Shown here in pieces: positions 19,138-58,289 of a stretch of DNA of 64,000 nucleotides. Location: the NCBI RefSeq assembly GCF_054482525.1, contig NZ_CM137006.1; one strand, written 5' to 3'. Numbering within the stretch: position 1 is the first letter of the stretch; every line of letters starts with the position of its first letter. The notes under the pieces were generated by a model, which was not told where the DNA came from, ran no database searches, and saw nothing but the letters and a program-made list of their open reading frames with translations. The translations under genes and the position numbers were made by a program.

Positions 19138-19850
19138 AATAAATATCCTCCGGCATAGCCGGAGGTTTTTCAAATGCGCCTATAAGGCTCTCTTACCAGC
19201 CGCGCCCTAACAGGCGCACACGATCTGACATTTGCATCCAACTTCGTTACTTACGGCCCGTAAACGGGCTGCCCGGATAGGGAATCGATAACTGCTCTCC
19301 CATTTTATCCTCTTCAAGCTGGTGCTTTATGTAATCCTGTATCTTCGCCGTGTTCTTACCCACCGTATCGACGTAGTACCCTCTGCACCAGAACTCCCTG
19401 TTCCTGTATTTGAATTTCAAATCACCAAACTGCTCGTAAAGCATCAGACTGCTTTTCCCTTTCAGATATCCCATAAAGCCGGATACGCTCATTTTGGGCG
19501 GGATCTCCACAAGCATATGGATATGATCTGCACAGCATTCAGCTTCCAGAATCCGTACACTTTTCCACTCACACAGCTTTCTCAAAATACTGCCTATTGC
19601 TCTACGCTTCTCTCTGTAGAACACCTGTCTTCGGTATTTTGGCGCAAAAACTATGTGATATTTACAGTTCCATCGGGTGTGCGCTAAGCTCTTTTCGTTC
19701 CCCATTGGGACCCCCTTTTGATTTCTTGTTTGACACTTGCAGTTGCCAGACCGCAAGGTGTTTTAACAAATCAAAAGGGGTTTTAATAACTGGCTTAAAG
19801 CTGAAAGCTTTCCGGAACCCCCAGCCTAGCTGGGGGTTTTCTGTGCACAA
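19138..19850 (-). mobile_element. IS200-family insertion sequence (IS200/IS605 group), copy 1, 713 bp
   Basis: 713 bp repeated identically at 55973..56685 with unrelated flanks on both sides; carries a single Y1/HUH transposase gene; subterminal hairpins cctccggcatagccggagg (19147-19165) and ccccagcctagctgggg (19818-19834). Confidence 0.9.
19247..19705 (-). CDS. tnpA: IS200-type Y1 (HUH) transposase TnpA
   Basis: MGNEKSLAHTRWNCKYHIVFAPKYRRQVFY...ADHIHMLVEIPPKMSVS...; 152 aa from internal Met of supplied ORF 19247..19756; HUH motif HIHML. Confidence 0.9.
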   Translation of the reverse strand: MGNEKSLAHTRWNCKYHIVFAPKYRRQVFYREKRRAIGSILRKLCEWKSVRILEAECCADHIHMLVEIPPKMSVSGFMGYLKGKSSLMLYEQFGDLKFKYRNREFWCRGYYVDTVGKNTAKIQDYIKHQLEEDKMGEQLSIPYPGSPFTGRK

Positions 19851-41561: not shown

Positions 41562-43130
41562 TTAGCGTGCCGGCTGAGTAGTCGTGGAAGACTGCTCAAA
41601 GTGATAGCGACCGGTTTTCAGGCTGCTTGGGCCGAGGCGTGCAAACTTGAACATTAAGAACAATTCTGCCACCAGGAACAGGGTATACAGGCCGCAAATC
41701 AGCACCATTGAGAAGATGAGATCGCCTGCGGTCAGTGACGAGTTCGCCACAGCTGTCGGCAGCACTTCACCGATAGCCCACGGTTGGCGGCCATATTCAG
41801 CCACGAACCAGCCCGCTTCTACAGCAATCCACGGCAGCGGAATACCGTACAGCGCGGCGCGCAGCAGCCATTTTTTCTCGCCAATGCGGTTGCGGATGAC
41901 ACTCCAGAAAGAGAGCGCGATGATTGCCAGCAGCAGGAAGCCACACGCCACCATGATACGGAACGCGAAGTACAGCGGCGCTACACGCGGAATGGAGTCT
42001 TTGGTTGCCTGTTGAATCTGCGCTTCAGTCGCATCAGCCACGTTTGGCGTATAGCGTTTCAGCAGCAGACCGTAACCGAGGTCTTTCTTCATGCTATTGA
42101 ACTGGTCACGAACCGCCTGGTCGGTAGAACCAGAACGCAGTTGCTCGAGCAGAGAGTACGCCTTCATCCCGTTACGAATGCGTTCTTCATGCTGCACCAT
42201 CAGTTCTTTCAGGCCGATAACTGGAGTATCCACGGAACGCGTTGCAATGATGCCCAGCGCGTAAGGGATCTGGATCGCAAATTTGTTCGTCTCCTCTTCC
42301 TGATCAGGAATGCCGAACAGAGTAAAGGCAGCAGGCGCAGGTTGCGTTTCCCACTCGGCTTCAATAGCAGCCAGTTTGGTTTTCTGCACGTCGCCCATTT
42401 CGTAACCAGATTCATCACCCAGAACAATAACAGACAGAACGGCAGCCATACCGAAGCTGGCAGCGATAGCAAAGGAGCGTTTAGCGAAGGCGAAGTCACG
42501 ACCTTTCAGCATATACCATGCGCTGATACCGAGGATGAACATCGCGCCAGTCACATAACCAGACGCTACAGTGTGAACGAATTTCACCTGAGCAACCGGG
42601 TTAAGCACCAGCTCGGAGAAGCTCACCATCTCCATACGCATAGTTTCAAAGTTGAAATCGGACGCGATTGGGTTTTGCATCCAGCCGTTCGCAACCAGAA
42701 TCCACAGTGCGGACAGGTTTGAACCGAGCGCCACCAGCCAGGTGACACACATATGCTGAACTTTACCCAGACGATCCCAACCGAAGAAGAACAGACCTAC
42801 AAAGGTGGATTCGAGGAAGAAGGCCATCAGACCTTCGATTGCCAGCGGCGCACCGAAGATATCCCCTACATAGTGGGAATAGTAAGACCAGTTAGTCCCG
42901 AACTGGAACTCCATGGTCAGACCGGTTGCCACACCCAGAGCGAAGTTGATACCAAACAACTTGCCCCAGAACTTGGTCATATCTTTATAAATCTGTTTGC
43001 CGGAAAGGACGTAGACCGTTTCCATAATGGCCAGCAGGAACGCCATACCGAGCGTCAGTGGCACAAAAAGGAAGTGGTACATCGCGGTCAAGGCAAACTG
43101 TAAGCGCGACAGTTCGACTATATCTAACAT
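41562..43130 (-). CDS. cydA: Cytochrome bd-I ubiquinol oxidase subunit I
   Basis: 522 aa from [31 protein letters not shown] (second Met of supplied ORF). Confidence 0.95.
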
Positions 43131-43935
43131 CATGACTCCTTGCTCATCGCATGAAGACTCCGAGAGTGAACCCCGTTAGAAAGGGTCACACGCATGCCCC
43201 AATACAAAATTATTTGCTCGCCTCTATCGTTGCCATTTCATCAAAAGAGGAAAAGACAATGATAAAAAAGTTACAAATATGTTAATGAATAAACCAAATT
43301 GATCCCGTAATTATATTACGCCGCAAAATCCTTACAATAAACAGGTTTTTATTGAGCAAATTTGCATTTTTCGACAGTGATCAATTTATAGCGAAATTGT
43401 CACGATCTCACCAATTTGATCTACGACAATTTATCGTGTTTTGCAGATTTTTTTCAAGAATTAAAAATTGATTTATATCAAAATCAACCAAATATGTTAA
43501 TTATGTATAAACCATAGATTATTGGTAATTTTATTGTTAATTTATTGTGAAATATTTATACAACACAATTATTACAATGAAAAGGTATAGATAAAAAACC
43601 AGTGTTTTATTTAACAGAACCGCCCTATCCACTTTTTATAATACCAATTGATTAGAGTAGCCAATTTGTTGCTATTTTACATAACATATTTTTATCAAAG
43701 TTAATTGATTGTTGCCTTTATGAGCACCGACCGTAAGCCCGTTATGTTATTGTTTCATTAGTAATAATCACTTAAATGTATCGATGAAACAGGTATGACT
43801 TAGCGGGAGTGATTGTTTCTGAGTGAACAGAGACCACTTTCGCCTGATAAATGAAAAATGAGCGATTTTTGCAAGTTAGTTTTTCTATAGCCGAGTACGC
43901 TCAGCGCCTCGCTTGATTACAATGAGGTTGCTGCT
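43131..43935. promoter_or_regulatory. cydA upstream control region (long AT-rich leader/promoter region)
   Basis: ~800 bp AT-rich non-coding DNA upstream of cydA; contains a perfect FNR-type box; cydAB is known to be FNR/ArcA/H-NS controlled. Confidence 0.8.
43468..43481. promoter_or_regulatory. FNR binding site
   Basis: ttgatttatatcaa = perfect TTGAT-N4-ATCAA. Confidence 0.75.
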
Positions 43936-44880
43936 ATGAGTCCTGATAATATCAGTTCTGCTGTCAATCGCTTCTCAGGTTGGCCATCTAATAATCCTCT
44001 AAAAACAGATAACGAATCAATGACATCACCCATGACTGTGCAGGTAATAAAGATGATTGCCGCCATCCTTGACCCACATCGAATAGTCGTTGGAATCGAT
44101 ACACTTTATACAACGCAGCGCGAAACATTTACCTCAGAGAGTCAACAGCTCATTGAATCAGCATTGCAAACACTTCATGTGATGAATTTAAATAACCTGG
44201 AAACAAATCTCGATGAGGAAGGTCACTATCTGGCTTTTGGATATAACGTTGACACTCCTGACAGAATAACCGTTTCTGCTTATAATGAAAAAAAGCCTGG
44301 CTGCTATGGCCAATGTCTTTTAATACAGGATGACGAAACAGACTTATTTAACCTGATAAAAGTTAAAATTTATGAAGCCAGGCATAATTATGTCGCTCAA
44401 TTGATGAGCGATCCGGAATTTATGTTCAAATTTAGTTATAGCGCTCAACAAAATAGATTAGAACCTCATCTTCTGGTTCCCACTTATTTCCCTCTAAAAA
44501 CAAACGAACCGGTTACGCCAGAGGATGTACTGTTACTTTATCGTTTCTTTAAAATGGATGGTGATTTTAATATATTAACATCAGATGAATACATGAGTAT
44601 CATGACACCTCTGATGAAGTGTGAGCGCAGCATCCACGACCACAACAGGTATGTGACGGGCAAAGATACCCTTCTTCTGGACTATCCTCCTTCTGGTAAC
44701 CAGATATATTTCCATATTTTTCCTGACGAATCAGCAACACTAGTCCTTTATTTTTCAAACAATGACATTGAATGTTTCGTCTTTGAAAGAGATATTCCGA
44801 GCCAGTATCGCTTTTTCAAAATGTTTACCAATCTGGCACTGGTTATTGATCAGTTAACCGATGCCAATCAAATACTTTAA
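43936..44880 (+). CDS. Hypothetical protein, 314 aa, AT-rich gene, no family recognised
   Basis: Intact ORF with SD-like gagg upstream; codon usage and GC clearly lower than flanking genes; Ser/Pro/Asn/Thr-rich N-terminus without hydrophobic signal peptide. Confidence 0.7.
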   Translation: MSPDNISSAVNRFSGWPSNNPLKTDNESMTSPMTVQVIKMIAAILDPHRIVVGIDTLYTTQRETFTSESQQLIESALQTLHVMNLNNLETNLDEEGHYLAFGYNVDTPDRITVSAYNEKKPGCYGQCLLIQDDETDLFNLIKVKIYEARHNYVAQLMSDPEFMFKFSYSAQQNRLEPHLLVPTYFPLKTNEPVTPEDVLLLYRFFKMDGDFNILTSDEYMSIMTPLMKCERSIHDHNRYVTGKDTLLLDYPPSGNQIYFHIFPDESATLVLYFSNNDIECFVFERDIPSQYRFFKMFTNLALVIDQLTDANQIL

Positions 44881-44960
44881 TTTTTATATATCCCCTGTGG
44901 CAAATATTGCTAAACAATGCCCGGGGATTAATTTTTATTACTCACGGAAAGATTTAAATA

Positions 44961-45383
44961 ATGATCCCATCTCAAATCTCTTTCAACACCCTTCCTGTCA
45001 ATGCAACATACGCTTCAGAGACAACAGTTGACACACAAAAATTCTCTGACATCCTCTACTCAGCGGGGTGTTCCCTAAAGGATCTGGCTTATCTGAGCAG
45101 ATGTCTGGCATCAATACATCCGACTATCGCCAAAAACATTTATGAAACAGAAAATCTCAGCGATCAAAAATTACTGCATATTGATTTCCGTAGTACAAAT
45201 GAAATCAAGATAAATATCTTTTTTGGTCAACAACGAGAAGGATTAATTGAAATTAATTCTGACACTGTCATTTTTCCGATATTGTCTTCATTAATTGACT
45301 CCGCCATTTCTAAATTTCAACACCAAATCCCCGTTAACGGTTCAGTAAATCCTGACCTATTGTATGAGGATTATACTGATTAA
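44961..45383 (+). CDS. Hypothetical protein, 140 aa, apparently acidic, AT-rich gene
   Basis: ORF 80 bp downstream of the 314-aa gene, same strand, same low-GC composition. Confidence 0.6.
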   Translation: MIPSQISFNTLPVNATYASETTVDTQKFSDILYSAGCSLKDLAYLSRCLASIHPTIAKNIYETENLSDQKLLHIDFRSTNEIKINIFFGQQREGLIEINSDTVIFPILSSLIDSAISKFQHQIPVNGSVNPDLLYEDYTD

Positions 45384-45930
45384 ATCCCTCCTGTCGCGAA
45401 AAATGGCCTGCGTTATTGCCAGACGTAATAAAACTTTTGATTAACGTTACTCGTACTGGTAGCACCTTCATGTACTTTTCTTTTTTACGAAAAATCAAAA
45501 GAGCTAACAAAGGTCATAATTCGCATGAATCATTAATTATTTGTTATTTTCAACATTATTTTTACATTAAGCAGAGATGAATTGCAGTGAAATTCGACTT
45601 AACTTTTATGAAATGCATTTACTCATAGCTAAAGCCACGTCACAAAAATGCAAATTAGAAGTTGATCACAATTATCTCAATACATCAAATCAAGTTAATT
45701 TTAAAAATTTAACATTCATGACATTAGTTGACATAACACACTGAATTAAAATGAGAATTTGAAAACACACTTTAAACAATCATTTCCCGAAAGACATTTT
45801 GAAAATAGATCAATTGCAACATTACGGTCAGATAAAGACACTCCTGTGATATTAAACCTGTGCCGTTATGAGCGGCCATAAATACGACGTGTGTAACTTA
45901 TTTTACTCTCTGTCTTACAAAGGATTACCC

Positions 45931-46380
45931 ATGAAGAAAGCAACACTTGTGATTGGCGTTATTGGCGCGGACTGCCATGCAGTAGGCAATAAAGTTCTGG
46001 ACCGCGTTTTTAGCAACCATGACTTCAGAGTTATTAATCTGGGCGTAATGGTCAGCCAGGACGAATATATTGATGCTGCCATTGAAACTGGTGCTGACGC
46101 GATTGTCGTCTCCTCTATCTATGGGCATGGCGATATCGATTGTCTGGGCATGCGCGAACGCTGCATCGAGCGTGGGCTGGGTAACATCCTGCTCTATGTG
46201 GGCGGTAACCTGGTGGTCGGAAAACATGACTTCGCTGACGTGGAAACCAAGTTCAAAGAGATGGGATTTGATCGCGTCTTTTCCCCAAGTCATGACTTAG
46301 AAGATGTTTGTCAGCTGATGGCCCACGATATCAACCAACGTCATGACGTTGATACTCGCATTCTTGAAGAGGCAATCTGA
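45931..46380 (+). CDS. Glutamate mutase S (sigma) component, B12-binding subunit of methylaspartate mutase
   Basis: ORF 45868..46380; start [21 protein letters not shown] at 45931 with SD aagga; DxHxxG cobalamin-binding motif (DCHAVG); ~149 aa, similar to clostridial GlmS/MutS. Confidence 0.88.
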
Positions 46381-47768
46381 TGCAAATCGTCTCTGTCGAT
46401 ATTGGATCGACGTGGACCAAAGCAGCCCTCTTCACCCGGGAGGGGGACGCGTTAACGTTGGTTAACCACGTTCTGACCCCAACCACCACCCATCATCTGG
46501 CGAAGGGGTTTTTCTCCAGCCTGGACCAGGTGTTAAACGTAGATAATGCCCTCCCCCTGTTAAACAGTGGTGAGGTTGCATTGAAGTATTCCTCCTCTGC
46601 CAAAGGTGGGCTGGCGGTTGCCGCAATGGGATTGGTGCCTTCTATCACCCTGGAAACCGCGAAAGTAACCGCTCACTCTGCGGGTGCTAAAATTGCGCAA
46701 TATTACGCCTACAAGCTGAACCGCCGTGATATCCAGGCACTGGAAGAAACGCAGCCCGATATTCTCTTGTTCACCGGCGGCACCGATGGCGGAGAAGAAA
46801 GCTACGGACTGAATAACGCCCGTGTGTTGGCAGAATCCAAACTCGACTGCGCCATTATTTATGCCGGAAACCGGGATATTCAGGACGAGGTGCAGGAGAT
46901 CCTCGGGCATAAAGACCTGACCATCGTCGACAACGTTCTGCCCGATCTTGACCATCCGAACCCTTTAGCTGCACGCCAGGCTATCTGCGACATATTCCTT
47001 AAACGCATCGTTAAAGGGAAAGGGTTGGATGTCATTGTTGATAAAACAGGCGAAGAACCAATGCCGACACCATGGACGGTCTTTGAACTGGTTAAGGCAA
47101 TCAGTAACGTCGATCACAGCTGGAAAGAGTTCATGCTGATCGACATGGGTGGCGCAACCACCGATGTCTATTCCGCCTGTGCCAACACGCTCTCGCCCGA
47201 CACCGTTTTACACGGCGTACCGGAACCCTTCGTGAAACGGACGGTGGAAGGCGATCTGGGAATGCGCGTCTCGGCAATGGTGGTTGGTGAAAGTGCGAAA
47301 GAGTTAGTCAATGTGAATTTTGCTCAGCAACCCGCACAGCTGGACGCTTTTTATCATTACCTCCGCCATCTAGTCGCTCATCCCGACTACTTACCCGCGA
47401 ATGCAGAAGAAAAATATTTCGATACCGTCCTGGCCGGACTGTGTGTGGGTTATGCCACCGAAAGACATGCGGGCACCAAAAAAGAGGTCTGCACCTGCGT
47501 CGGCAATGTCGATTTACAGATGGGACGTGACCTGACAACCGTGCGTAAAGTCGTTGGTTCCGGCGGATGGCTCTCGCGTGCCAGTCAGTTCGATATGCAT
47601 CACTGGTTGAAATACCGCGAGTTAAACGACGACGGTAAACGCATTCTCTTACCGACCGAATTTGAATATTACCGCGATTCCCGGGGGCTATTACCACTGC
47701 TGGCAAACGTCGCCAGAGTCGATCCACTGGCCGCCGCGCGCACCAGTATTCAATGCTTAACCCTATAA
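46380..47768 (+). CDS. Glutamate mutase L component (GlmL/MutL-like, ASKHA-fold putative reactivase/chaperone)
   Basis: 462 aa [18 protein letters not shown] (ASKHA phosphate-1-like motif); start overlaps S-subunit stop (ATGA); located between S and E genes as in Clostridium. Confidence 0.8.
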   Translation: MQIVSVDIGSTWTKAALFTREGDALTLVNHVLTPTTTHHLAKGFFSSLDQVLNVDNALPLLNSGEVALKYSSSAKGGLAVAAMGLVPSITLETAKVTAHSAGAKIAQYYAYKLNRRDIQALEETQPDILLFTGGTDGGEESYGLNNARVLAESKLDCAIIYAGNRDIQDEVQEILGHKDLTIVDNVLPDLDHPNPLAARQAICDIFLKRIVKGKGLDVIVDKTGEEPMPTPWTVFELVKAISNVDHSWKEFMLIDMGGATTDVYSACANTLSPDTVLHGVPEPFVKRTVEGDLGMRVSAMVVGESAKELVNVNFAQQPAQLDAFYHYLRHLVAHPDYLPANAEEKYFDTVLAGLCVGYATERHAGTKKEVCTCVGNVDLQMGRDLTTVRKVVGSGGWLSRASQFDMHHWLKYRELNDDGKRILLPTEFEYYRDSRGLLPLLANVARVDPLAAARTSIQCLTL

Positions 47769-47786
47769 CAATTAAGGCTGCAATCA

Positions 47787-49232
47787 ATGGAACTTCGAAA
47801 TAAGAAATTAACCCATGACGAATTCATGACCGAGCGGCAACAGGTACTGAAAACCTGGGAAACCGGCAAGGATGTTGAAAACTTTGAAGATGGCGTTAAA
47901 TACCAACAAACCATTCCGGAGCATAAACGCTTCTCTCTTGCCCTGCTGAAAGCAGACAAGGAAGGTAAAACTCTTAGCCAACCGCGCGCAGGCGTGGCGC
48001 TGATGGACGAACACATCGAACTACTGAAAACACTACAAGAAGAGTGCGATCTGCTGCCGAGCACCATCGATGCATATACCCGTCTGAATCGGTACGAAGA
48101 AGCGGCTGTAGGGATTAAAAAATCCATCGAAGCCGGAACCTCTAAACTGAACGGTTTACCGGTCGTTAACCATGGCGTCGCAGCTTGCCGTCGCCTCACC
48201 GAAACTCTGCAAAAACCGCTACAGATCCGCCACGGCACGCCAGATGCGCGTCTGCTGGCTGAAATCTCGATGGCCAGCGGCTTTACCAGTTATGAAGGCG
48301 GCGGCATTTCCTACAATATTCCGTATGCCAAGCGCGTAACGCTGGAAAAATCGATCCGCGACTGGCAGTACTGCGACCGTTTAATGGGGATGTATGAAGA
48401 ACACGGGATCCGCATCAACCGCGAACCGTTTGGCCCACTAACGGGTACGCTGATCCCGCCGTTTATCTCGCACTCTATCGCGATAATCGAAGGATTACTG
48501 GCGCTGGAACAGGGTGTGAAATCTATCACCGTTGGTTATGGACAGGTCGGCAGCCTTACGCAGGATGTCGCGGCGATCCAGTCTCTGCGTGAACTTGCAC
48601 ACGAATACTTTCAGAGCTATGGCTATACCGACTATGAATTAAGTACCGTATTTCACCAGTGGATGGGCGGCTTTCCGGAAGACGAATCGAAAGCGTTCGC
48701 CATTATCTCCTGGGGTGCAGCCGTCGCGGGGATGTCTGGTGCCACCAAAGTCATCACCAAAAGTCCGCACGAAGCCTGGGGCATCCCGACTGCCACTGCC
48801 AACATTCAGGGGCTGAAAGCCTCCCGCCAGATGCTCAACATGGTCAATGAGCAGAAATTCCCGCCGTGCCCTGCGGTTGAACTGGAAATTGAACTGATTA
48901 AGAGCGAGGTTCGCGCGGTACTCAATAAAGTGTTCGAATTGGGTAATGGTGATATTGCGCGCGGTACGGTGCTGGCATTTGAAGCGGGCGTACTGGATGT
49001 GCCGTTTGCACCAGCCGCGTGTAACGCGGGCAAAATTCTTCCTGTCCGTGATAACACCGGCGCGATACGCGTACTGGAAGCCGGAGCCGTTCCATTGCCA
49101 AAAGATATTCTCGACCTCCACCACGATTACGTTGCTGAACGCGCACGCTTTGAAGGACGCCAACCGACATTCCAGATGGTTGTAGATGACATCAATGCTG
49201 TATCCCACAGTAAATTAATAGGAAGACCATAA
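47787..49232 (+). CDS. Glutamate mutase E (epsilon) catalytic subunit, methylaspartate mutase
   Basis: 481 aa MELRNKKLTHDEFMTERQQVLKTWETGKDVE...; strong resemblance to remembered Clostridium cochlearium GlmE (MELKNKKWTDEEF...QPRAGVALLDEHI...HGTPDSRLLAEI...GGGISYNIPYAK). Confidence 0.9.
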   Translation: MELRNKKLTHDEFMTERQQVLKTWETGKDVENFEDGVKYQQTIPEHKRFSLALLKADKEGKTLSQPRAGVALMDEHIELLKTLQEECDLLPSTIDAYTRLNRYEEAAVGIKKSIEAGTSKLNGLPVVNHGVAACRRLTETLQKPLQIRHGTPDARLLAEISMASGFTSYEGGGISYNIPYAKRVTLEKSIRDWQYCDRLMGMYEEHGIRINREPFGPLTGTLIPPFISHSIAIIEGLLALEQGVKSITVGYGQVGSLTQDVAAIQSLRELAHEYFQSYGYTDYELSTVFHQWMGGFPEDESKAFAIISWGAAVAGMSGATKVITKSPHEAWGIPTATANIQGLKASRQMLNMVNEQKFPPCPAVELEIELIKSEVRAVLNKVFELGNGDIARGTVLAFEAGVLDVPFAPAACNAGKILPVRDNTGAIRVLEAGAVPLPKDILDLHHDYVAERARFEGRQPTFQMVVDDINAVSHSKLIGRP

Positions 49233-50473
49233 TGAAAATAAAACAGGCCCTGTTCACCGCTGGCTATTCCTCATTCTATTTCGATGACCAGCAGGCGATA
49301 AAAAACGGAGCGGGTCACGACGGCTTTTTTTATACCGGGGAGCCAGTAACACAGGGGTTTAACGCCGTACGTCAGGCCGGGGAGTGCGTATCGGTACAGT
49401 TGATTCTGGAAAACGGCGCGGTCGCCGTAGGTGACTGTGCTGCCGTACAGTATTCCGGGGCAGGTGGTCGCGATCCACTGTTCCTCGCGGAGCACTTTAT
49501 TCCGTTCCTCAACGACCATATCAAGCCATTACTGGTAGGCCGCGATGTGGATGCTTTCCTGCCGAATGCCCGTTTCTTCGACAAATTGCGTATTGACGGC
49601 AACTTGCTGCATACCGCCGTGCGCTACGGATTATCACAGGCGCTGCTTGATGCTACCGCGCTGGCAACCGGCCGTCTGAAAACTGAAGTGGTCTGTGATG
49701 AATGGCAGTTGCCACGCGTGGCGGAATCCATTCCATTATTTGGTCAGAGCGGCGACGATCGATATATCGCCGTCGATAAGATGATCCTTAAGGGCATCGA
49801 CGTGCTGCCCCATGCGCTGATTAATAACGTCGAAGAGAAACTGGGCTTTAAAGGTGAAAAACTGCGCGAATATGTCCGCTGGCTGTCGGATCGTATTCTG
49901 AGCAAGCGCACCAGCGCACGCTACCACCCTACCCTGCACATCGATGTATACGGCACTATCGGTCTGATCTTCGATATGGATCCGCTTCGCTGTGCGCAAT
50001 ACATCGCCAGCCTGGAAAAAGAAGCGCAAGGCCTGCCGCTCTACATTGAAGGGCCGGTCGATGCCGGTAACAAGCCCGATCAAATTCGCCTGCTGACCGC
50101 GATTACCAAAGAGCTGACGCGCCTCGGTTCCGGCGTGAAAATTGTGGCCGATGAATGGTGTAACACCTACCAGGATATTGTTGATTTCACCGATGCCGCC
50201 AGTTGCCACATGGTGCAAATCAAAACCCCGGATCTGGGCAGTATTCACAACATCGTCGATGCAGTTCTTTATTGCAACAGCCACAGCATGGAAGCGTACC
50301 AGGGCGGCACCTGCAATGAAACTGATGTCAGTGCCCGCACCTGTGTCCACGTCGCCCTTGCCGCTCGCCCCATACGTATGCTGGTAAAGCCAGGGATGGG
50401 CTTTGACGAAGGCCTCGATATCGTCTTCAACGAAATGAATCGTACTATCGCGCTGTTGCAGGCTAAGGATTAA
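49232..50473 (+). CDS. 3-methylaspartate ammonia-lyase (beta-methylaspartase)
   Basis: 413 aa MKIKQALFTAGYSSFYFDDQQAIKNGAGHDGFFYTGEP...CAAVQYSGAGGRDPLF...; enolase-superfamily MAL, close to remembered clostridial MAL; start overlaps glmE stop. Confidence 0.92.
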   Translation: MKIKQALFTAGYSSFYFDDQQAIKNGAGHDGFFYTGEPVTQGFNAVRQAGECVSVQLILENGAVAVGDCAAVQYSGAGGRDPLFLAEHFIPFLNDHIKPLLVGRDVDAFLPNARFFDKLRIDGNLLHTAVRYGLSQALLDATALATGRLKTEVVCDEWQLPRVAESIPLFGQSGDDRYIAVDKMILKGIDVLPHALINNVEEKLGFKGEKLREYVRWLSDRILSKRTSARYHPTLHIDVYGTIGLIFDMDPLRCAQYIASLEKEAQGLPLYIEGPVDAGNKPDQIRLLTAITKELTRLGSGVKIVADEWCNTYQDIVDFTDAASCHMVQIKTPDLGSIHNIVDAVLYCNSHSMEAYQGGTCNETDVSARTCVHVALAARPIRMLVKPGMGFDEGLDIVFNEMNRTIALLQAKD

Positions 50474-50476
50474 CAA

Positions 50477-51847
50477 ATGGCTCGTTCTTTTAAAGTCTTA
50501 TCGCCAACGGCAATCCTCGGGTATGGATTCCCGGAGGAGAGCTTCCGCAAAGCGATGGCAGAATCGCCCGATCTGATCGCCGTTGATGCTGGCTCTTCCG
50601 ATCCGGGTCCCCACTACCTCGGGGCGGGCAAACCGTTTACCGATCGCGCAGGGGTCAAGCGCGATCTACGCTATATGATCACCGCAGGCGTGCAAAATAA
50701 TATACCGGTGGTGATCGGAACGGCCGGCGGTTCTGGTGCCGCTCCACACCTGGAGTGGTGCCGAGAAATAATTCATGAGATTGCCCGGGAAGAGCACCTC
50801 TCGTTCTCGATGGCGCTGATCCCGGCAGACGTTGACAAAGCCATCGTCCACCAGGCGCTGGATAACGGCAAAATCACGGCGCTGGATTTTGTCCCGCCGT
50901 TAACCCACGACGCGATTGACGAAAGTACGTATATCGTCGCGCAAATGGGCATCGAACCCTTCCAGCAGGCGCTGAAAGAAGGCGCGCAAGTGGTGCTGGG
51001 CGGGCGCGCTTACGACCCGGCCTGCTTTGCTGCGCTACCGATCATGCAAGGCTTTGATGAAGGTCTGGCGCTGCATTGTGGGAAAATCCTTGAATGCGCG
51101 GCAATCGCCGCAACGCCCGGCTCAGGCTCTGACTGTGCGATGGGCATCATTGATGACAACGGCTTTACGCTGAAGACATTTAATCCGAAGCGTAAATTTA
51201 CCGAAACGTCAGCGGCTGCACACACACTGTATGAGAAATCCGATCCCTACTTCCTGCCAGGACCTGGCGGCGTGTTGAACCTGAAAGGCTGCACATTTAA
51301 AGCGGTCAATGACGGCGAAGTGTACGTCAGCGGTTCTAAGCATGAAGAAACGCCGTATGCCCTGAAACTGGAAGGTGCGCGACGGGTGGGCTTCCGCTGT
51401 CTGACCATCGCAGGAACGCGCGACCCGATCATGATCGCCGGGATCGATAAAATCATCGATGAAGTCAAAACCAGCGTTTCGCGTAACCTGTCGCTCGACG
51501 ATGACAGCATACGCATCAATTTCCACCTGTACGGCAAAAACGGGGTGATGGGCGACCATGAACCGATGCAAACTGCCGGGCATGAGCTGGGGATTGTCCT
51601 TGATGTAGTTGCACCGACCCAGGAAATTGCCAACAGCGTTTGCTCGCTGGTGCGCTCTACTATGCTGCACTACGGCTATGAAAACCGCATCGCTACCGCA
51701 GGCAACCTGGCGTTCCCATTCTCCCCTTCAGATATCCAGGGCGGGCCGGTATACGAATTTTCCATATATCACCTGATTGAAGCCAACGACGCTCTGCGTT
51801 TTGATTTCCATATTGAACAGGTGACGCCAGAAGGAGTTCAGGCATGA
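50477..51847 (+). CDS. Conserved protein of unknown function (possibly DUF1446 / AtuA-like family; assignment from memory, unverified)
   Basis: 456 aa ORF starting 4 nt after MAL stop; no recognisable catalytic motif. Confidence 0.75.
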   Translation: MARSFKVLSPTAILGYGFPEESFRKAMAESPDLIAVDAGSSDPGPHYLGAGKPFTDRAGVKRDLRYMITAGVQNNIPVVIGTAGGSGAAPHLEWCREIIHEIAREEHLSFSMALIPADVDKAIVHQALDNGKITALDFVPPLTHDAIDESTYIVAQMGIEPFQQALKEGAQVVLGGRAYDPACFAALPIMQGFDEGLALHCGKILECAAIAATPGSGSDCAMGIIDDNGFTLKTFNPKRKFTETSAAAHTLYEKSDPYFLPGPGGVLNLKGCTFKAVNDGEVYVSGSKHEETPYALKLEGARRVGFRCLTIAGTRDPIMIAGIDKIIDEVKTSVSRNLSLDDDSIRINFHLYGKNGVMGDHEPMQTAGHELGIVLDVVAPTQEIANSVCSLVRSTMLHYGYENRIATAGNLAFPFSPSDIQGGPVYEFSIYHLIEANDALRFDFHIEQVTPEGVQA

Positions 51848-52161
51848 AACAGTCAATTGTCTCACTGGCGCAAGTCATTCGTTCGAAAAATGCCGGACCT
51901 TACGAACTGGTTTTAGATATTTTATTTAAAACCAAAGAAAACTATGAGCGAGTTAAATCATCAGGGCAATTAACCCCAGAACTGATCGCGCGCTTATATC
52001 ATGTTGAACCTGACTTTATTCATCGTATTGTCTGGTTTGATCCTTCTAACGCAGTAAAAATCGTCATGCCACGAGATATTATCTCCGGGAATGTAGGTGA
52101 CAATGATGTCTATGGTGCACAGCAACATGCACCTTTATTAAATATGAGTTTCGATTTGTAA
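51844..52161 (+). CDS. Small conserved protein of unknown function (possibly DUF4387), partner of preceding gene
   Basis: 105 aa ORF whose ATG overlaps the stop of the preceding gene (ATGA), implying translational coupling. Confidence 0.7.
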   Translation: MKQSIVSLAQVIRSKNAGPYELVLDILFKTKENYERVKSSGQLTPELIARLYHVEPDFIHRIVWFDPSNAVKIVMPRDIISGNVGDNDVYGAQQHAPLLNMSFDL

Positions 52162-52321
52162 AAATCCGAACACTTTTAGCCAACTGACATCCCGTCACTT
52201 ATTGCAGTTCAACACTTCAGCTATTTGTAAGGTTGTAATAGCAGGTAGATGCCTGAATCTTTATTCGGGCATCTACTTCTCCTGATTCTGATTTATCGCC
52301 GTGCACCTGATGGAGGAAAAA

Positions 52322-53602
52322 ATGAAGAAAATAAGTTTAACCACGATGATTCTTTTGGCGCTGGTACTTGGAATGATTATCGGCGTAGTGCTCAATAACA
52401 CTGCTTCACCGGAAACAGCAAAACTCTATGCGCAAGAAATATCGATATTCACGACGATTTTCTTACGACTGATAAAAATGATTATCGCTCCGTTAGTGGT
52501 CTCTACCCTGGTGGTAGGTATAGCTAAAATGGGCGATGCCAAAGCCCTTGGTCGTATTTTTTCTAAAACACTCTTTTTATTTATTTGCGCCTCATTGCTG
52601 TCAATTGCCTTAGGCTTGATAACAGTAAATTTCTTCATGCCAGGCACAGGAATTAATTTTGTTGCACACGGTGCCGAAACCACCGGAGTGGTCGCGTCAG
52701 AACCCTTTACGCTAAAAGTATTTATTTCGCATGCTTTCCCCACCAGCATTGTCGATGCCATGGCGCACAATGAAATTTTGCAAATCGTGGTGTTCTCAAT
52801 TTTCCTCGGCTGTAGCCTGACGGCGATTGGTGAGAAAGGCAGCGCCATCGTTCACGCCTTAGATTCGCTGGCACATGCCATGTTAAAGCTCACTGGCTAC
52901 GTCATGCTCTTCGCTCCCCTGACCGTATTCGCTGCTATTTCAGCATTGATTGCTGAACGAGGACTGGCAGTTATGGTGAGCGCCGGGATCTTTATGGGTG
53001 AATTTTATTTCACCATGTTGTTACTTTGGGTGCTGCTTATCGGTCTGGCCATCGTTTATGTCGGCCCCTGCATCAGACGCCTGACCCGCGCCCTTTCGGA
53101 ACCCGCCCTGCTGGCATTTACCACATCCAGTTCTGAAGCGGCTTTTCCGGGAACGCTTGAAAAACTGGAGCAATTTGGCGTTTCCCCCAAAATTGCCAGC
53201 TTTGTCTTACCCATTGGCTACTCATTTAATCTCGTTGGATCAATGGCCTACTGCTCCTTCGCCACAGTTTTCATCGCCCAGGCCTGCAATATCCATTTAT
53301 CCATCGGTGAGCAAATCACCATGCTGTTGATCCTGATGTTGACCTCGAAAGGAATGGCTGGCGTACCACGCGCCTCAATGGTGGTTATCGCCGCCACGCT
53401 CAACCAGTTCAATATTCCGGAAGCGGGGCTGATCTTGCTGATGGGCGTTGATCCGTTCCTTGATATGGGGCGTTCAGCGACAAACGTCATGAGCAACGCA
53501 ATGGGCGCTGCGATGGTGAGTCGGTGGGAAGGCGAACATTTCGGCGAGGGCTGTCGGGGTAAAGCATTAAAACCCAATGAATCGAACGTTGCTCTGCCCT
53601 GA
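52322..53602 (+). CDS. Dicarboxylate/amino acid:cation symporter (GltP/DctA family)
   Basis: ORF 52301..53602; start MKKISLTTMILLALVLGMIIGVV at 52322 after SD ggagg; multi-pass hydrophobic protein resembling glutamate/aspartate or C4-dicarboxylate symporters. Confidence 0.85.
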   Translation: MKKISLTTMILLALVLGMIIGVVLNNTASPETAKLYAQEISIFTTIFLRLIKMIIAPLVVSTLVVGIAKMGDAKALGRIFSKTLFLFICASLLSIALGLITVNFFMPGTGINFVAHGAETTGVVASEPFTLKVFISHAFPTSIVDAMAHNEILQIVVFSIFLGCSLTAIGEKGSAIVHALDSLAHAMLKLTGYVMLFAPLTVFAAISALIAERGLAVMVSAGIFMGEFYFTMLLLWVLLIGLAIVYVGPCIRRLTRALSEPALLAFTTSSSEAAFPGTLEKLEQFGVSPKIASFVLPIGYSFNLVGSMAYCSFATVFIAQACNIHLSIGEQITMLLILMLTSKGMAGVPRASMVVIAATLNQFNIPEAGLILLMGVDPFLDMGRSATNVMSNAMGAAMVSRWEGEHFGEGCRGKALKPNESNVALP

Positions 53603-53709
53603 GGGGGATCTTAAGCAATCAGAAGCCAATGACTACGCATTTTTATAAGCCGGATCATGAAGTTAGACGGCAATTAAGTAACACTAACGTTTAAGGTGAA
53701 AAGTGAAAT

Positions 53710-55362
53710 ATGTCCAAACCATTTATCTGGCAAGAACCGTTTCTACAAAATAAAGACGGTACAGAATATACATTAATTAGCGATCAACATATTACAGTAA
53801 CGGAATTAGACGGCGAAGAAGTGATAAAAATCGCTCCTGAAGCATTAACGCTGCTTGCCCGGCAGGCATTTTATGAAGCCTCTTTTTTCTTACGTTCCGC
53901 TCATTTGCAACAGGTCGCCAGCATTTTTAACGATCCGCAGGCCAGCAGTAATGATAAATACGTTGCGTTGCAGTTATTACGTAATGCTGAAGTCTCAGCA
54001 AAAGGGGTATTACCCAACTGTCAGGATACCGGCACCGCAACTATTGTTGCCAGTAAAGGGCAACAGATATGGACCGGAGGTAACGACGCTGAAGCCTTAA
54101 GCAAAGGCATTTACACCACTTTCCAGGAAAATAATCTGCGCTTTTCACAAAATGCGCCGCTGGATATGTACACCGAAGTCAATACGCAAACCAATCTCCC
54201 GGCGCAGATTGATATCAGCGCTGTCGCTGGTGATGAGTACCATTTTCTCTGTGTTAATAAAGGGGGCGGCTCTGCCAATAAAGCCGCGCTTTATCAGGAA
54301 ACCAAATCCTTATTGCAACCAGAAAAACTGACCGCATTTTTAATCGAAAAAATGAAATCGCTGGGCACCGCTGCCTGCCCGCCTTACCACATCGCCTTTG
54401 TCGTCGGAGGGCTTTCAGCCGATCAAACCTTAAAAGTTGCCAAGCTGGCCTCTACGAAATATTACGACAATTTGCCCACCAGCGGAAACGAGCAGGGACA
54501 AGCATTCCGTGATATTGAGCTGGAAAAAGTGTTGCTCGAGGCCAGTCAGCAATTTGGTATTGGTGCGCAATTTGGGGGTAAATATTTCGCTCATGATATT
54601 CGCGTCATTCGTCTGCCGCGTCACGGTGGCTCTTGCCCGATAGCTATGGCGCTCTCCTGTTCTGCGGATCGCAATATCAAAGCAAAAATTAACAAGCACG
54701 GTATCTGGCTGGAAAAACTCGAACACAATCCTGGGCAATATATTCCAGCCTCACTACGGGAAGAAAATCACGCGCAACATGTACAACTGGATCTAAACCG
54801 TCCGTTGCGTGAAGTGATGCAGGATCTCGCCAGATTACCGGTAGGTACCCGCGTGTCGTTAAGTGGTCCCATCGTAGTGGCGCGCGATATCGCCCACGCC
54901 AAAATAAAAGTGCGGCTGGATAGCGGCGAACCGATGCCGGATTACCTGAAGCATCATATTGTCTATTACGCTGGCCCGGCGAAAACACCGGAGAACATGG
55001 CCTGCGGTTCACTGGGTCCAACCACGGGCGGTCGAATGGACGGTTATGTCGATACCTTCCAGGCTGCTGGCGGCAGTCTGGTAATGTTATCGAAAGGTAA
55101 CCGCAGCCAGCAGGTCACCGATGCCTGTCACAAACATGGCGGCTTCAATCTGGGAAGTATTGGCGGTGCAGCTGCGTTACTGGCGCAAGAATATGTCAAA
55201 AGTCTGCGTTGCCTGGAATACCCGGAGCTGGGTATGGAAGCGGTGTGGATGATGGAAGTGGAAAATTTACCCGCATTCATCCTGGTAGATGATAAAGGCA
55301 ATAATTTCTTTAGTCAGTTTGAGCAGCAACACCGCTGTGCCAGTTGCCCTGCGGGACATTAA
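53710..55362 (+). CDS. fumD: Class I (Fe-S) fumarate hydratase-like enzyme; likely mesaconase/fumarase FumD type
   Basis: 550 aa, collinear similarity to E. coli FumA/FumB ([74 protein letters not shown]); clustered with glutamate mutase and MAL. Confidence 0.85.
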
Positions 55363-55371
55363 GGAAAATGA

Positions 55372-55974
55372 ATGGAAGCGCGAATTTCAACTGAACGGCA
55401 TGTGCAGCACCAGCAAAAATTGAAGGAACAGGTCGATACGCGCGTCGCGGCGGCGATAGAGAAAAAAGGGATCTTGATTGTTTTCACCGGCAACGGCAAA
55501 GGGAAATCCACTGCCGCGTTTGGTACTGTGACGCGCGCGGTGGGTCATGGCAAAACGGTGGGGGTTGCGCAGTACATCAAGGGGCAATGGGACAACGGCG
55601 AATACAACCTTCTCCAGCCGCTGGGGGTTGAGTTTCATATTATGGGAACCGGTTTTACCTGGGAGACACAGAACCGGCAAGCGGATATCGACGCGGCGAA
55701 AGAGGTCTGGTCGGAAAGCAAACGGATGCTGGCTGACAAGCGTTACGACTTAGTGGTGCTTGATGAGCTGACCTATATGCTGGCTTACCATTATCTGGAC
55801 ACCGAAGAAGTGATCGCTTCTCTGCAAAACCGCCCGGCACAACAAAGTGTCATTGTCACCGGACGCGGTTGCCACAGTCAGATATTAAAAATGGCGGATA
55901 CGGTCAGCGAAATCCGCCCCGTCAAACATGCTTTTGATAACGGCATTCAGGCGCAGCCGGGTATCGACTGGTAA
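55372..55974 (+). CDS. Cob(I)alamin adenosyltransferase (CobA/BtuR family), cluster-associated
   Basis: 200 aa; P-loop VFTGNGKGKSTAAFG and ...WETQNRQADIDAA...DLVVLDELTYM...TGRGCH...VSEIRPVKHAF matching remembered E. coli BtuR. Confidence 0.88.
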   Translation: MEARISTERHVQHQQKLKEQVDTRVAAAIEKKGILIVFTGNGKGKSTAAFGTVTRAVGHGKTVGVAQYIKGQWDNGEYNLLQPLGVEFHIMGTGFTWETQNRQADIDAAKEVWSESKRMLADKRYDLVVLDELTYMLAYHYLDTEEVIASLQNRPAQQSVIVTGRGCHSQILKMADTVSEIRPVKHAFDNGIQAQPGIDW

Positions 55975-56685
55975 TAAATATCCTCCGGCATAGCCGGAGG
56001 TTTTTCAAATGCGCCTATAAGGCTCTCTTACCAGCCGCGCCCTAACAGGCGCACACGATCTGACATTTGCATCCAACTTCGTTACTTACGGCCCGTAAAC
56101 GGGCTGCCCGGATAGGGAATCGATAACTGCTCTCCCATTTTATCCTCTTCAAGCTGGTGCTTTATGTAATCCTGTATCTTCGCCGTGTTCTTACCCACCG
56201 TATCGACGTAGTACCCTCTGCACCAGAACTCCCTGTTCCTGTATTTGAATTTCAAATCACCAAACTGCTCGTAAAGCATCAGACTGCTTTTCCCTTTCAG
56301 ATATCCCATAAAGCCGGATACGCTCATTTTGGGCGGGATCTCCACAAGCATATGGATATGATCTGCACAGCATTCAGCTTCCAGAATCCGTACACTTTTC
56401 CACTCACACAGCTTTCTCAAAATACTGCCTATTGCTCTACGCTTCTCTCTGTAGAACACCTGTCTTCGGTATTTTGGCGCAAAAACTATGTGATATTTAC
56501 AGTTCCATCGGGTGTGCGCTAAGCTCTTTTCGTTCCCCATTGGGACCCCCTTTTGATTTCTTGTTTGACACTTGCAGTTGCCAGACCGCAAGGTGTTTTA
56601 ACAAATCAAAAGGGGTTTTAATAACTGGCTTAAAGCTGAAAGCTTTCCGGAACCCCCAGCCTAGCTGGGGGTTTTCTGTGCACAA
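55973..56685 (-). mobile_element. IS200-family insertion sequence, copy 2, 713 bp
   Basis: Identical by eye to 19138..19850 including transposase gene and both subterminal hairpins; begins within/at the TAA stop of the adenosyltransferase gene. Confidence 0.9.
56082..56540 (-). CDS. tnpA: IS200-type Y1 (HUH) transposase TnpA
   Basis: Protein identical to that of copy 1 (supplied ORFs 19247..19756 and 56082..56591 are identical). Confidence 0.9.
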   Translation of the reverse strand: MGNEKSLAHTRWNCKYHIVFAPKYRRQVFYREKRRAIGSILRKLCEWKSVRILEAECCADHIHMLVEIPPKMSVSGFMGYLKGKSSLMLYEQFGDLKFKYRNREFWCRGYYVDTVGKNTAKIQDYIKHQLEEDKMGEQLSIPYPGSPFTGRK

Positions 56686-56718
56686 TAACTGCGCCTGGCA
56701 TCCCGCCAGGCGCAGGTT

Positions 56719-57624
56719 TTACATCTCCTGCGGTACAACCGATTTCGCCAGCAACCATTCACGAAATTGCTGCAAGTGCGGTGAGTCAGACTTCTCTTCC
56801 TGCCACGTCATAATAAAACGATTACCGGTACGAATAGGCACATCACAGGGAATCACCATATCGCCACTATCCAAATCATGTTGAATAGCGAACCGTGGTA
56901 ACAGCGCCACGCCGAGATTAGAGCGCACGGCGGCAATCAGCATTGAAAGCAAATCGAAACGTGGTCCGTTGTTGACCAGCGGACTGCTAACGCCAGATAA
57001 GGCAAACCACTCTTCCCAGCCAGTAATACGGGTACTTTGATGCAGAAGTGGTAACTCTGTAAGCAGTTCTGCCACTGACAGTTTTTGATCGGACATTGCA
57101 AGCAAACTGCCGCTGCATACCGGCAAAATCTCCTCTTCAAAGAGATATTCTACTTCCGCCCAGGGCGCGCAAAAATTTTCGCGCATAATGACAGCATCGT
57201 ACTCCCGATTAAGAAAATCGCCGTTATTAGCTAAAGAGTGAATATTAACAATAATATCGGGATGTAACTTTGTGAATTCATGTAAATTTGGGATTAACCA
57301 GTGGGTACTAAACGTAGGATTCACGGCAAGTTCAATAACCTTAACTGTAGGTTGCCAGGTCATAATGGTATTGGTATCGCGTTCCAGCTTATTTAATGTT
57401 TCTTTTACTATCCCCAGGTAATACTTCCCTGCATCATTAAGAAAAATACGTTTTTTAGAGTGTGAAAATAACGGAGTATGTAAAAATTCCTCCAGCGCAC
57501 TCACTTGTCTGAATACTGCACTTTGGGTTAACGCTAACTCCTCTGCCGCTCTGGTATAACTTTCATGACGTGCGACGACCTCAAAAGTCACCAGCAGTTC
57601 CGTTTTAGGTATTTTTCCTCGCAT
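56719..57624 (-). CDS. LysR-type transcriptional regulator
   Basis: 301 aa; N-terminal HTH ...FEVVARHESYTRAAEELALTQSAVFRQVSALEEFL, C-terminal periplasmic-binding-protein-like effector domain. Confidence 0.85.
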   Translation of the reverse strand: MRGKIPKTELLVTFEVVARHESYTRAAEELALTQSAVFRQVSALEEFLHTPLFSHSKKRIFLNDAGKYYLGIVKETLNKLERDTNTIMTWQPTVKVIELAVNPTFSTHWLIPNLHEFTKLHPDIIVNIHSLANNGDFLNREYDAVIMRENFCAPWAEVEYLFEEEILPVCSGSLLAMSDQKLSVAELLTELPLLHQSTRITGWEEWFALSGVSSPLVNNGPRFDLLSMLIAAVRSNLGVALLPRFAIQHDLDSGDMVIPCDVPIRTGNRFIMTWQEEKSDSPHLQQFREWLLAKSVVPQEM

Positions 57625-58190
57625 AATGCCGTCCCTTAAAAATAGTTTAAACCATCAAAAATACATTACTTATTACGAAGTAATGGTAACCAAAGCAGCA
57701 ATAAATAATTTATAAGAATCATGATTGACATTTATAACCCAGTAAGCCTGGCGTGACAAATATCTTAATCAGATAATAATAATCCGAAAAGCACAGCGCC
57801 TTTCGAATTATCCGGAATCACATTAAGTGAAAATTATTAAATTGATATCATTTATCATATCTGTGGATATTATGATAAACAATCAACAAAGATTTTATTT
57901 TTGATTTATAGCATATCCCTCTAAGAATTTTTGCGATGCTGCAATATCCGGGGTAAAGACCCGATCCTGGCTGACAAATGGCACGACTTGACGATAAGCG
58001 GTGAACATCGCTTTTGTTGATTTACTTAACGCTACGGTCAAACGCTGGGAAGCCAGTGCATCAGGTAACGATTCGAAATTCGCCGTCGTTCTTATTCGTG
58101 GCTTGCGGTCGGTTGCGGCAATCCACAGTGGCTGTGGTCATGCAGTCAAGCCAGCGGTCAGATTTCGACCGTGGTTAACATTTAAGGCAT

Positions 58191-58214
58191 AAAAAAGGCC
58201 ATCATACGATGGCC
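58191..58214 (-). terminator. Rho-independent terminator of sucABCD
   Basis: On minus strand ggccatcgtatgatggcc hairpin followed by tttttt. Confidence 0.8.
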
Positions 58215-58289
58215 AACCATGTCGAAACCGACAGCCCTTCGCCATTCCTGTAGAGGGAAGCGGCGAGGGCTATTTCTTATTACAGATAT
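58191..58289 (-). ncRNA. sdhX: Putative 3-prime-UTR-derived sRNA SdhX (RybD) of the sdh-suc operon
   Basis: ~100 nt between sucD stop and the terminator hairpin; in E. coli this 3-prime UTR gives rise to SdhX; boundaries approximate. Confidence 0.5.

Follow-up and report, generated by a model that had tools for sequence, protein, structure and literature searches.

Mosaic structure and predicted ArcA sites of the divergent cydA-ORF314 intergenic region of Escherichia coli

Genes flanking the intergenic region

The window, a 64-kb stretch of DNA, is 100% identical to the chromosome of E. coli PCN033. Genes on the minus strand are arranged in the order tolA-tolR-tolQ-ybgC-ybgE-cydX-cydB-cydA, and cydA (41562-43130, minus strand; RefSeq start 43130) encodes the 522 aa subunit I of cytochrome bd-I. 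A second in-frame cydA ATG is found at 43133. On the plus strand, ORF314 (43936-44880), an orphan gene of 314 codons, corresponds to WP_001366650, to ECs_0767 in Sakai and to EDL933_RS03965, and is annotated as a hypothetical protein. It is followed after 80 bp by a second orphan gene of 140 codons, ORF140 (44961-45383, plus strand; ECs_0766). The RefSeq starts of cydA (43130, minus) and ORF314 (43936, plus) delimit a divergent intergenic region of 805 bp (43131-43935), and the preliminary description of this DNA had correctly placed the cydAB control region between divergent genes. The G+C content of the intergenic region is 32.8%, falling to 27.7% over 43300-43750, and that of the full window is 50.7%. 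The AT-rich DNA extends through both orphan genes, forming a block (43131-45867) of 35% G+C as against 51% for the window.

Downstream of ORF140, a 484-bp AT-rich gap precedes a glutamate-fermentation island, the genes of which have the same orientation as ORF314 and include glmS, glmL and glmE, genes for a methylaspartate ammonia-lyase, an AtuA-family protein, a DUF4387 protein and a symporter, and fumD and cobO. An IS200, a LysR-family gene and sucD are located beyond the island. The glutamate-fermentation island of E. coli O157:H7 was described by Kronen & Berg (2015). Nothing notable in the way of FNR or ArcA sites was found in the gap upstream of glmS. In K-12, the same position is occupied by mngR-mngA-mngB, with mngB transcribed in the same direction as cydA.

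The orphan genes ORF314 and ORF140

The ORF314/ORF140 pair is carried by EHEC O157:H7, EPEC E2348/69, EAEC 042 and the ExPEC strain PCN033. E. coli alleles of ORF314 with 96% and 93.5% nucleotide identity have exactly 314 codons with no indels. The E. albertii gene is 77% identical at the nucleotide level and 64% identical at the amino acid level, again with no indels at a dS of ∼0.5, though the copy in the E. albertii type strain is frameshifted. The dN/dS of ORF314 is 0.36-0.52, compared with 0.006 for cydA against E. albertii. With its frame kept and a dN/dS below 1, ORF314 behaves as a genuine protein-coding gene. A sample of 59 full-length records from the 1134 genomes that have the pair (see below) gives a hypothetical-protein annotation for both ORFs in every case. 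In E. albertii, ORF314 adjoins cydA in the absence of both ORF140 and the glm island, indicating that ORF314 is a module of its own. No terminator-like site was found between ORF314 and ORF140 in a scan, and ORF140 is probably co-transcribed with ORF314.

The relatives of the two predicted proteins that came up among 5.8 billion clustered proteins, queried with both ORFs, and among 1.8 billion cluster representatives, queried with ORF314, were restricted to Escherichia/Shigella or were fragments. Searches of Pfam, NCBIfam, PDB sequences, PADLOC and PHROGs returned nothing significant for either ORF, no paralogy between the two was detectable, and AlphaFold2 models had mean pLDDT values of 43 and 45, giving no usable fold. 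ECs0766, ECs0767 and Z0897-Z0899 are not mentioned in the literature covered by a text search, nor are they listed in the supplements of a transcriptome study of EHEC in bovine content.

FNR sites and the cydAB P1 promoter

The perfect FNR box TTGATTTATATCAA (43468-43481) reported in the preliminary description is present as stated, matching TTGAT-N4-ATCAA at all 10 specified bases. It is the single match in the 64 kb, where 0.06 are expected, and 6 of 100 shuffled sequences contained at least one match. Alignment identifies TTGATATTTATCAA as its K-12 orthologue. A second, imperfect FNR site, TTGATCTACGACAA (43416-43429), has two mismatches, is located 52 bp nearer to cydA, and has TTGTTCTCGATCAA as its K-12 counterpart. 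In K-12, FNR bound at the cydAB sites represses cydAB anaerobically. FNR occupancy at cydAB has been demonstrated in K-12, and a cydAB FNR site centred at -53.5 has been listed (Myers 2013).

The K-12 P1 start is 288 nt upstream of the cydA ATG (RegulonDB distance quoted in PMC10469882), which puts the two K-12 FNR sites at -53.5 and -1.5. As the 52-bp spacing between the sites is the same in the window, the P1 start is placed at ∼43421, giving the perfect box a centre at -53.5 and the second site a centre at -1.5. The core promoter inferred from this geometry, from the K-12 distance and from a promoter scan occupies 43421-43457 (minus strand), with TTGAAA as -35 (43457-43452) and TAAATT as -10 (43433-43428).

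The centre of the perfect box is 344.5 bp from the cydA ATG in PCN033 versus 341.5 bp in K-12. Among six genomes in which cydA has different neighbours, five carry the box at a distance of 339.5-344.5 bp from the ATG, namely K-12, PCN033, E. albertii, Yokenella and an Enterobacter. The gene upstream of the control region is mngB in K-12 and the Enterobacter, ORF314 in PCN033 and E. albertii, and a small ORF beside a decarboxylase operon in Yokenella. Because the position of the box is kept whatever the neighbour, it is a cydA element that does not depend on the gene beside it. It corresponds to the known FNR site of cydAB P1 and probably serves cydA only; as a textbook cydAB site, it is in itself nothing new.

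Mosaic structure of the intergenic region

Collinear homology with K-12 ends at 43555 (blastn), and homology with Yokenella, Enterobacter and a further genome, L014, ends 345-378 bp upstream of the ATG (blastn). Identity with E. albertii is 95% over 43131-43510, a value like that of cydA (94.6%), and 76% over 43511-43935, like that of ORF314 (77%). As conservation breaks at 43510-43555, conserved cydA DNA accounts for no more than about half of the 800 bp. The whole region had been described as an AT-rich cydA regulatory region of ∼800 bp. This holds for the AT-rich gap, which is 805 bp long, but the conserved cydA control DNA makes up only the 380-425 bp beside cydA.

The intergenic region is a mosaic of two promoter regions lying back to back, one half core and the other accessory. 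The core half (43131-43555, minus strand) is the cydAB control region, which takes in promoters P1-P5, the two FNR sites and two predicted ArcA regions, and is common to K-12 and other Enterobacterales. For the distal half (43556-43935, plus strand), no homology to K-12 or to other genera was detected, and this segment is inherited with ORF314. Of 5426 complete E. coli genomes, 1138 have the distal DNA, and 1134 of these also have the ORFs. In one genome that carries the distal DNA and lacks the ORFs, the loss is an IS903-mediated deletion. Core DNA and accessory DNA thus each make up half of the region that controls a core respiratory operon.

Transcription start and leader of ORF314

The preliminary description had proposed that the promoter of the ORF at 43936 be mapped, and published Cappable-seq data for EDL933 provide such a map. 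A single gTSS is given for EDL933_RS03965, at 855177 on the minus strand of that genome (PMC10469882 Table S5), and was detected in exponential LB and exponential acid cultures, i.e. in 2 of 8 conditions, and in none of the stationary-phase cultures. As a check on the coordinates, the cydA starts listed there were compared with the published distances (248, 178 and 73 nt) and agreed with them. Position 855177 is the A in TTTTTATCAAAG; the EDL933 and PCN033 sequences are the same here, and the start corresponds to 43694 in the window. It should be noted that the start is taken from EDL933 in 2 of 8 conditions and that AT-rich DNA is prone to spurious initiation, while there are many possible causes for the lack of the start in stationary-phase cultures.

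The promoter that belongs to this start (43658-43694, plus strand) consists of a -35-like TAGCCA (43658-43663), an 18-bp spacer and a -10 TAACAT (43682-43687). The hexamers are weak, with 8 of 12 matches, and a simple sigma-70 scan of the plus strand of the gap reported no site, this promoter included. A block including it (43650-43713) hardly varies between E. coli and E. albertii, and no other part of the distal region, which averages 76% identity, is as well conserved. The start is 242 nt upstream of the ORF314 ATG and 273 bp from cydAB P1, and the two starts on opposite strands thus have the arrangement of a divergent promoter pair, with P1 at its predicted position. Relative to the ORF314 start, the perfect FNR box is centred at -219.5, and the geometry of an FNR-dependent promoter was not found at ORF314. 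No FNR-like site with up to two mismatches was found between 43488 and 43912.

Other candidate signals near the ORF314 ATG were rejected. A sigma-54 reading of TGAGCGATTTTTGCA lacks the -24 GG, and the pair TTGCAA/TATAGC and the hexamer TACAAT have the wrong spacing or no -35 hexamer.

Within the 242-nt 5′ leader of ORF314 (43694-43935, plus strand), two blocks, 43854-43877 and 43887-43911, do not differ between E. coli and E. albertii. Two potential leader peptides were considered and set aside. The ATG of a 21-codon ORF (43851-43916) is lost in other alleles, and a 10-codon ORF persists but its peptide is not conserved. The predicted fold of the leader did not differ significantly from those of shuffled sequences (z = -0.29), and a fold of the alignment showed almost no covariation. 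Rfam gave no match in 43000-46000, and none near the locus at the gathering threshold in a scan of the window. A possible hairpin in the leader pairs CCUC with the Shine-Dalgarno GAGG.

Predicted ArcA boxes

ArcA boxes were predicted with a weight matrix constructed from 115 boxes (Park 2013 Table S3), for which the training scores range from 9.6 to 21 bits with a median of 15.7. Seven boxes of at least 12 bits were predicted in the gap. The distal part includes five of them, compared with 0.2 expected, a number reached in 0 of 500 shuffles. ArcA boxes are themselves AT-rich and score easily in such DNA, with a background of 0.5-1 match per kb in the adjacent 35% G+C DNA.

Three regions bound by ArcA in ChIP-seq, cydA1, cydA2 and cydA3, are known at K-12 cydAB (Park 2013), where ArcA regions have also been seen by footprinting. 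The predicted box at 43268-43285 (plus strand, 20.5 bits) is equivalent to cydA3, and a direct-repeat cluster at 43494-43551 (plus strand), with predicted boxes of 16.2, 16.9 and 20.5 bits, the last two starting 11 bp apart, is equivalent to cydA2. Two further boxes are predicted in the distal DNA, one at 43681-43698 (minus strand, 17.3 bits) in the orientation of cydA, and one at 43698-43715 (plus strand, 14.0 bits). The predicted boxes in all three segments (43268-43285, 43494-43551 and 43681-43715) score like validated ArcA sites. Measured upstream from the cydA ATG, the segments are at 138-155, 364-421 and 551-585 bp in PCN033, and the K-12 sites at 135-152, 370-418 and 573-590 bp.

A second matrix that was built without the K-12 cydA boxes was used for comparison across genera. 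In four of five independent lineages, it predicted a box that scored 15 bits or more, had the orientation of cydA and started 567-590 bp upstream of the ATG. This predicted distal box occurs in K-12, where it is cydA1, and in PCN033, E. albertii, L014 and Yokenella, in DNA that cannot be aligned between lineages. The Enterobacter L017 has no box at 567-590 bp. Local shuffles put the chance of a distal box at ∼0.001 per lineage, a figure that applies to a positional window chosen post hoc; the excess of recurrences goes far beyond anything that this choice could produce. Regulatory architecture can therefore survive recombination in the sucD-cydA hot spot, as the predicted distal ArcA site keeps its position although the sequence around it has been replaced repeatedly.

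In PCN033, the predicted box at 43681-43698 covers -13 to +5 of the ORF314 promoter. One of its half-sites is the -10 TAACAT, and the box contains the start at 43694. The neighbouring predicted box at 43698-43715 covers +5 to +22. Occlusion of the ORF314 promoter by ArcA is plausible given this overlap. As the predicted box would cover the -10 and start of ORF314, the expected outcome is opposite regulation of cydAB and ORF314 rather than co-regulation.

H-NS and expression

The cydAB region of K-12 is bound by H-NS (Park 2013), and the account of cydAB given there, which cites Govantes 2000, has ArcA acting by antagonising H-NS. The ORF314 segment has the features of foreign DNA of the H-NS-bound type, with 35% G+C compared with 51%, a patchy distribution (21% of E. 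coli genomes) and very low expression. RNA-seq data for EDL933 cover 11 conditions. In these, RPKM values are 0-12, mostly 0-2, for the four genes annotated as hypothetical from glmS (Z0895) to cydA (Z0900), a Z-numbered group that presumably includes ORF314 and ORF140. RPKM values for cydA are 2-212 in the same conditions. The supplements of an H-NS ChAP-seq study of K-12, SE11 and SE15 have no ECs0765-0768 or ORF-level entry; K-12 and SE15 do not carry ORF314.

ORF314 is a real, weakly constrained and almost silent gene. Its silencing by H-NS, put forward in the preliminary description, is plausible and accords with the AT-rich composition (35% G+C) and with RPKM values that are mostly 0-2.

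Interpretation

The arrangement that best accounts for these findings, to which we assign a probability of roughly 0.55, is that of two promoter regions lying back to back, with FNR acting for cydA only and with ArcA and H-NS as common inputs that have opposite outcomes. The cydA-side half (43131 to ∼43510-43555) would be the classical cydAB control region, in which the FNR box would serve cydA alone. The distal half (∼43556-43935) would have arrived with, and would travel with, the Escherichia-specific ORF314/ORF140 pair, carrying a weak sigma-70 promoter that belongs to the pair, with its start at A43694 and a 242-nt leader. The same distal stretch would also supply the far-upstream ArcA site of cydAB, overlapping the -10 and start of ORF314. 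In air, H-NS may spread over the 2.7-kb AT-rich block, holding ORF314 close to silence. In micro-aerobic or anaerobic growth, ArcA-P would bind, relieve the H-NS repression of cydAB and occlude the ORF314 promoter. In this way, cydAB and ORF314 would share their ArcA and H-NS inputs with opposite results, and FNR would have no direct part at ORF314. The anatomy, the start in EDL933 (where the sequence is the same), the conservation patterns and the low expression are observed; we infer the binding of ArcA and H-NS at ORF314 and the effects of both.

A less likely explanation is that there is no specific coupling. ORF314 would then have an independent weak promoter under generic H-NS silencing, and the distal ArcA box would act for cydAB only or would not be bound. 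The composition of the block (35% G+C over 43131-45867, 51% in the window), near-zero expression in 11 conditions and the known presence of H-NS on the K-12 cydAB region all fit this explanation, as does the general enrichment of ArcA-like words in AT-rich DNA. However, an ArcA dimer over -13 to +5, if bound, could hardly spare the promoter. In addition, the block with the box, the -10 and the start is the best-conserved part of the distal DNA, and the position of the box is kept across genera, neither of which favours independence.

It is also conceivable, but improbable, that the start at 43694 is spurious and that ORF314 and ORF140 are decaying and effectively non-functional, which would make a control region for them a moot point. 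Such decay would be consistent with a start seen in 2 of 8 conditions, the high dN/dS of 0.36-0.52, the frameshift in the E. albertii type strain, the tolerance of an IS903-mediated deletion of the island, and the lack of both homologues outside Escherichia and a confident fold. Against this, 314 codons have been kept without indels at a dS of ∼0.5, both ORFs are annotated in 59 of the 59 sampled full-length records, and the coding sequence has diverged more than the promoter and leader blocks.

Activation by FNR takes place from sites at ∼-41.5 or between -61.5 and -92.5, and repression from sites near the core promoter. The least credible explanation has FNR directly co-regulating ORF314 with cydAB from the perfect box as an operator common to the divergent pair, which takes up the preliminary description's suggestion of co-regulation by oxygen-responsive regulators; the box is perfect and located between both genes, and a -10-like TATAAA (43506-43511) would lead to a hypothetical plus-strand start ∼41-44 bp from its centre, but no mapped start is near TATAAA, the sole mapped ORF314 start is 219.5 bp away and thus outside the known FNR positions, there is no other FNR-like site near 43694, and the box stays in place relative to cydA in genomes that have no divergent gene. 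Direct FNR control of ORF314 is therefore unsupported and unlikely.

The preferred arrangement of back-to-back promoter regions with common ArcA and H-NS inputs allows a more far-reaching and tentative reading. The far-upstream ArcA site may be a module that keeps its position across the Enterobacterales despite replacement of the surrounding DNA, and the promoter of the orphan operon may have been placed inside it, such that one ArcA-P/H-NS switch would turn cytochrome bd on and the orphans off. This reading would hold for approximately one fifth of E. coli and for E. albertii, with the orphan operon born in Escherichia. If it is true, ORF314 and ORF140 would be aerobic-only genes with a possibly host-related function. 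It offers a hypothesis for how a widespread, unstudied orphan pair could be wired into oxygen sensing.

Comparison with known systems

The cydAB control region of K-12 is reportedly covered in studies by Cotter and colleagues from 1997, Govantes and colleagues from 2000 and Lynch and Lin from 1996. Like PCN033, K-12 has the perfect FNR box centred at -53.5 and another FNR site at -1.5 relative to P1, AT-rich DNA such as H-NS binds, and three ArcA regions (∼135-155, 365-420 and 550-590 bp upstream of the ATG), which in PCN033 are predicted. The two differ in that the K-12 neighbour, mngB, has the same direction as cydA and there is no divergent promoter, whereas in PCN033 the DNA beyond ∼425 bp is unrelated and accessory and the predicted distal ArcA box overlaps a divergent promoter.

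The island that adjoins the orphan genes matches the O157:H7 glutamate-fermentation island found in the variable sucD-cydA gap of Enterobacterales, but the pathway of that island does not include ORF314 or ORF140. Other genera carry the glutamate-fermentation island (Kronen & Berg 2015), yet no homologue of ORF314 outside Escherichia was found in the protein searches described above.

ORF314 resembles the genes at which H-NS silencing is combined with anti-repression by ArcA (cydAB and appY) in being AT-rich, in having predicted ArcA boxes and in its very low basal expression. At cydAB and appY, ArcA displaces H-NS, whereas at ORF314 a predicted ArcA box over the -10 and start would be expected to lead to occlusion and not to counter-silencing.

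The divergent region between sdhC and gltA is bound by ArcA at several sites (Park 2013 Fig. 2B). Like cydA-ORF314, it has back-to-back promoters connected with respiration or the TCA cycle and several ArcA boxes in one intergenic region. There, both partners belong to core metabolism and binding by ArcA has been shown, whereas here one partner is an orphan and binding is predicted. The cydA-ORF314 region is predicted to be a new instance of this familiar arrangement, in which a divergent promoter pair shares sites for global regulators.

Accessory DNA between cydA and sucD

Between cydA and sucD (window 43936-58289) lies a hot spot of accessory DNA. This gap holds mngRAB in E. coli K-12 and in one Enterobacter, mngRAB together with a TPR gene in SE15, and ORF314 and ORF140 followed by the glutamate-fermentation (glm) island in PCN033, O157 and E2348/69. 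E. albertii carries ORF314 with a gene for a 258-aa signal-peptide protein, Yokenella carries HxlR, MFS and decarboxylase genes, and the gap is empty in one comparison contig (L014). In E. coli 23CRST031, an IS903B deletion extending from approximately window 43854 to the LysR-family gene has removed ORF314, ORF140 and the entire glm island, leaving the cydA control region undamaged up to the distal predicted ArcA site. Two copies of IS200 are present in the window (56082-56673 and 19715-19838), and both match Rfam STnc490 at 146 bits. One of them, flanked by cobO and the LysR-family gene within the island, is missing from Sakai.

ORF314 and its leader

The ORF314 orthologue is unbroken in one E. 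albertii-like contig (L003), and in the type strain, E. albertii NBRC 107761 (L010 1294-2239), a frameshift divides it into two ORFs, one of 209 aa and one of 108 aa. Two blocks of the leader, AAAAATGAGCGATTTTTGCAAGTT and ATAGCCGAGTACGCTCAGCGCCTCG (both within window 43854-43911), do not differ between E. coli and E. albertii, and because of this identity both are better conserved than the ORF314 coding sequence. A leader hairpin is possible, in which CCUC (43907-43910) would pair with GAGG of the Shine-Dalgarno sequence (43925-43928). An upstream ORF of 10 codons (43858-43890, including the stop) is also retained.

Gene order and start sites from ORF314 to cobO

The eleven genes from ORF314 to cobO (window 43936-55974) are all in the same orientation, and the ORF314 start site (window 43694) is the sole start assigned within this 12-kb run in the EDL933 Cappable-seq table (PMC10469882, Table S5). 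Across the eight aerobic conditions of that table, the glm genes have no start sites, which agrees with the report of Kronen and Berg (2015), who found no conditions under which these genes are expressed. The glm operon promoter is presumably contained in the 484 bp (31% GC) between ORF140 and glmS (window 45384-45867); a scan of this region for FNR-like sites gave none below 2 mismatches. A small ORF, ECs0765, was formerly annotated there in Sakai and has since been dropped. For glmS itself (window 45868-46380), mechanical ORF calling begins at the ATG at 45868 and gives 170 aa, whereas the RefSeq protein is 149 aa and starts at approximately 45931.

The far-upstream ArcA box of cydAB

Window 43556-43935 was compared with L002 7613-8036, from another comparison contig, and with the regions 5′ of cydA in L014, L016 and L017 (Enterobacter). 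In 4 of 5 independent lineages a predicted far-upstream ArcA box starts 567-590 bp 5′ of the cydA ATG, in the same orientation, and the DNA flanking it has no alignable homology between lineages. As judged from these sequences, the putative regulatory position is retained while the sequence around it is exchanged.
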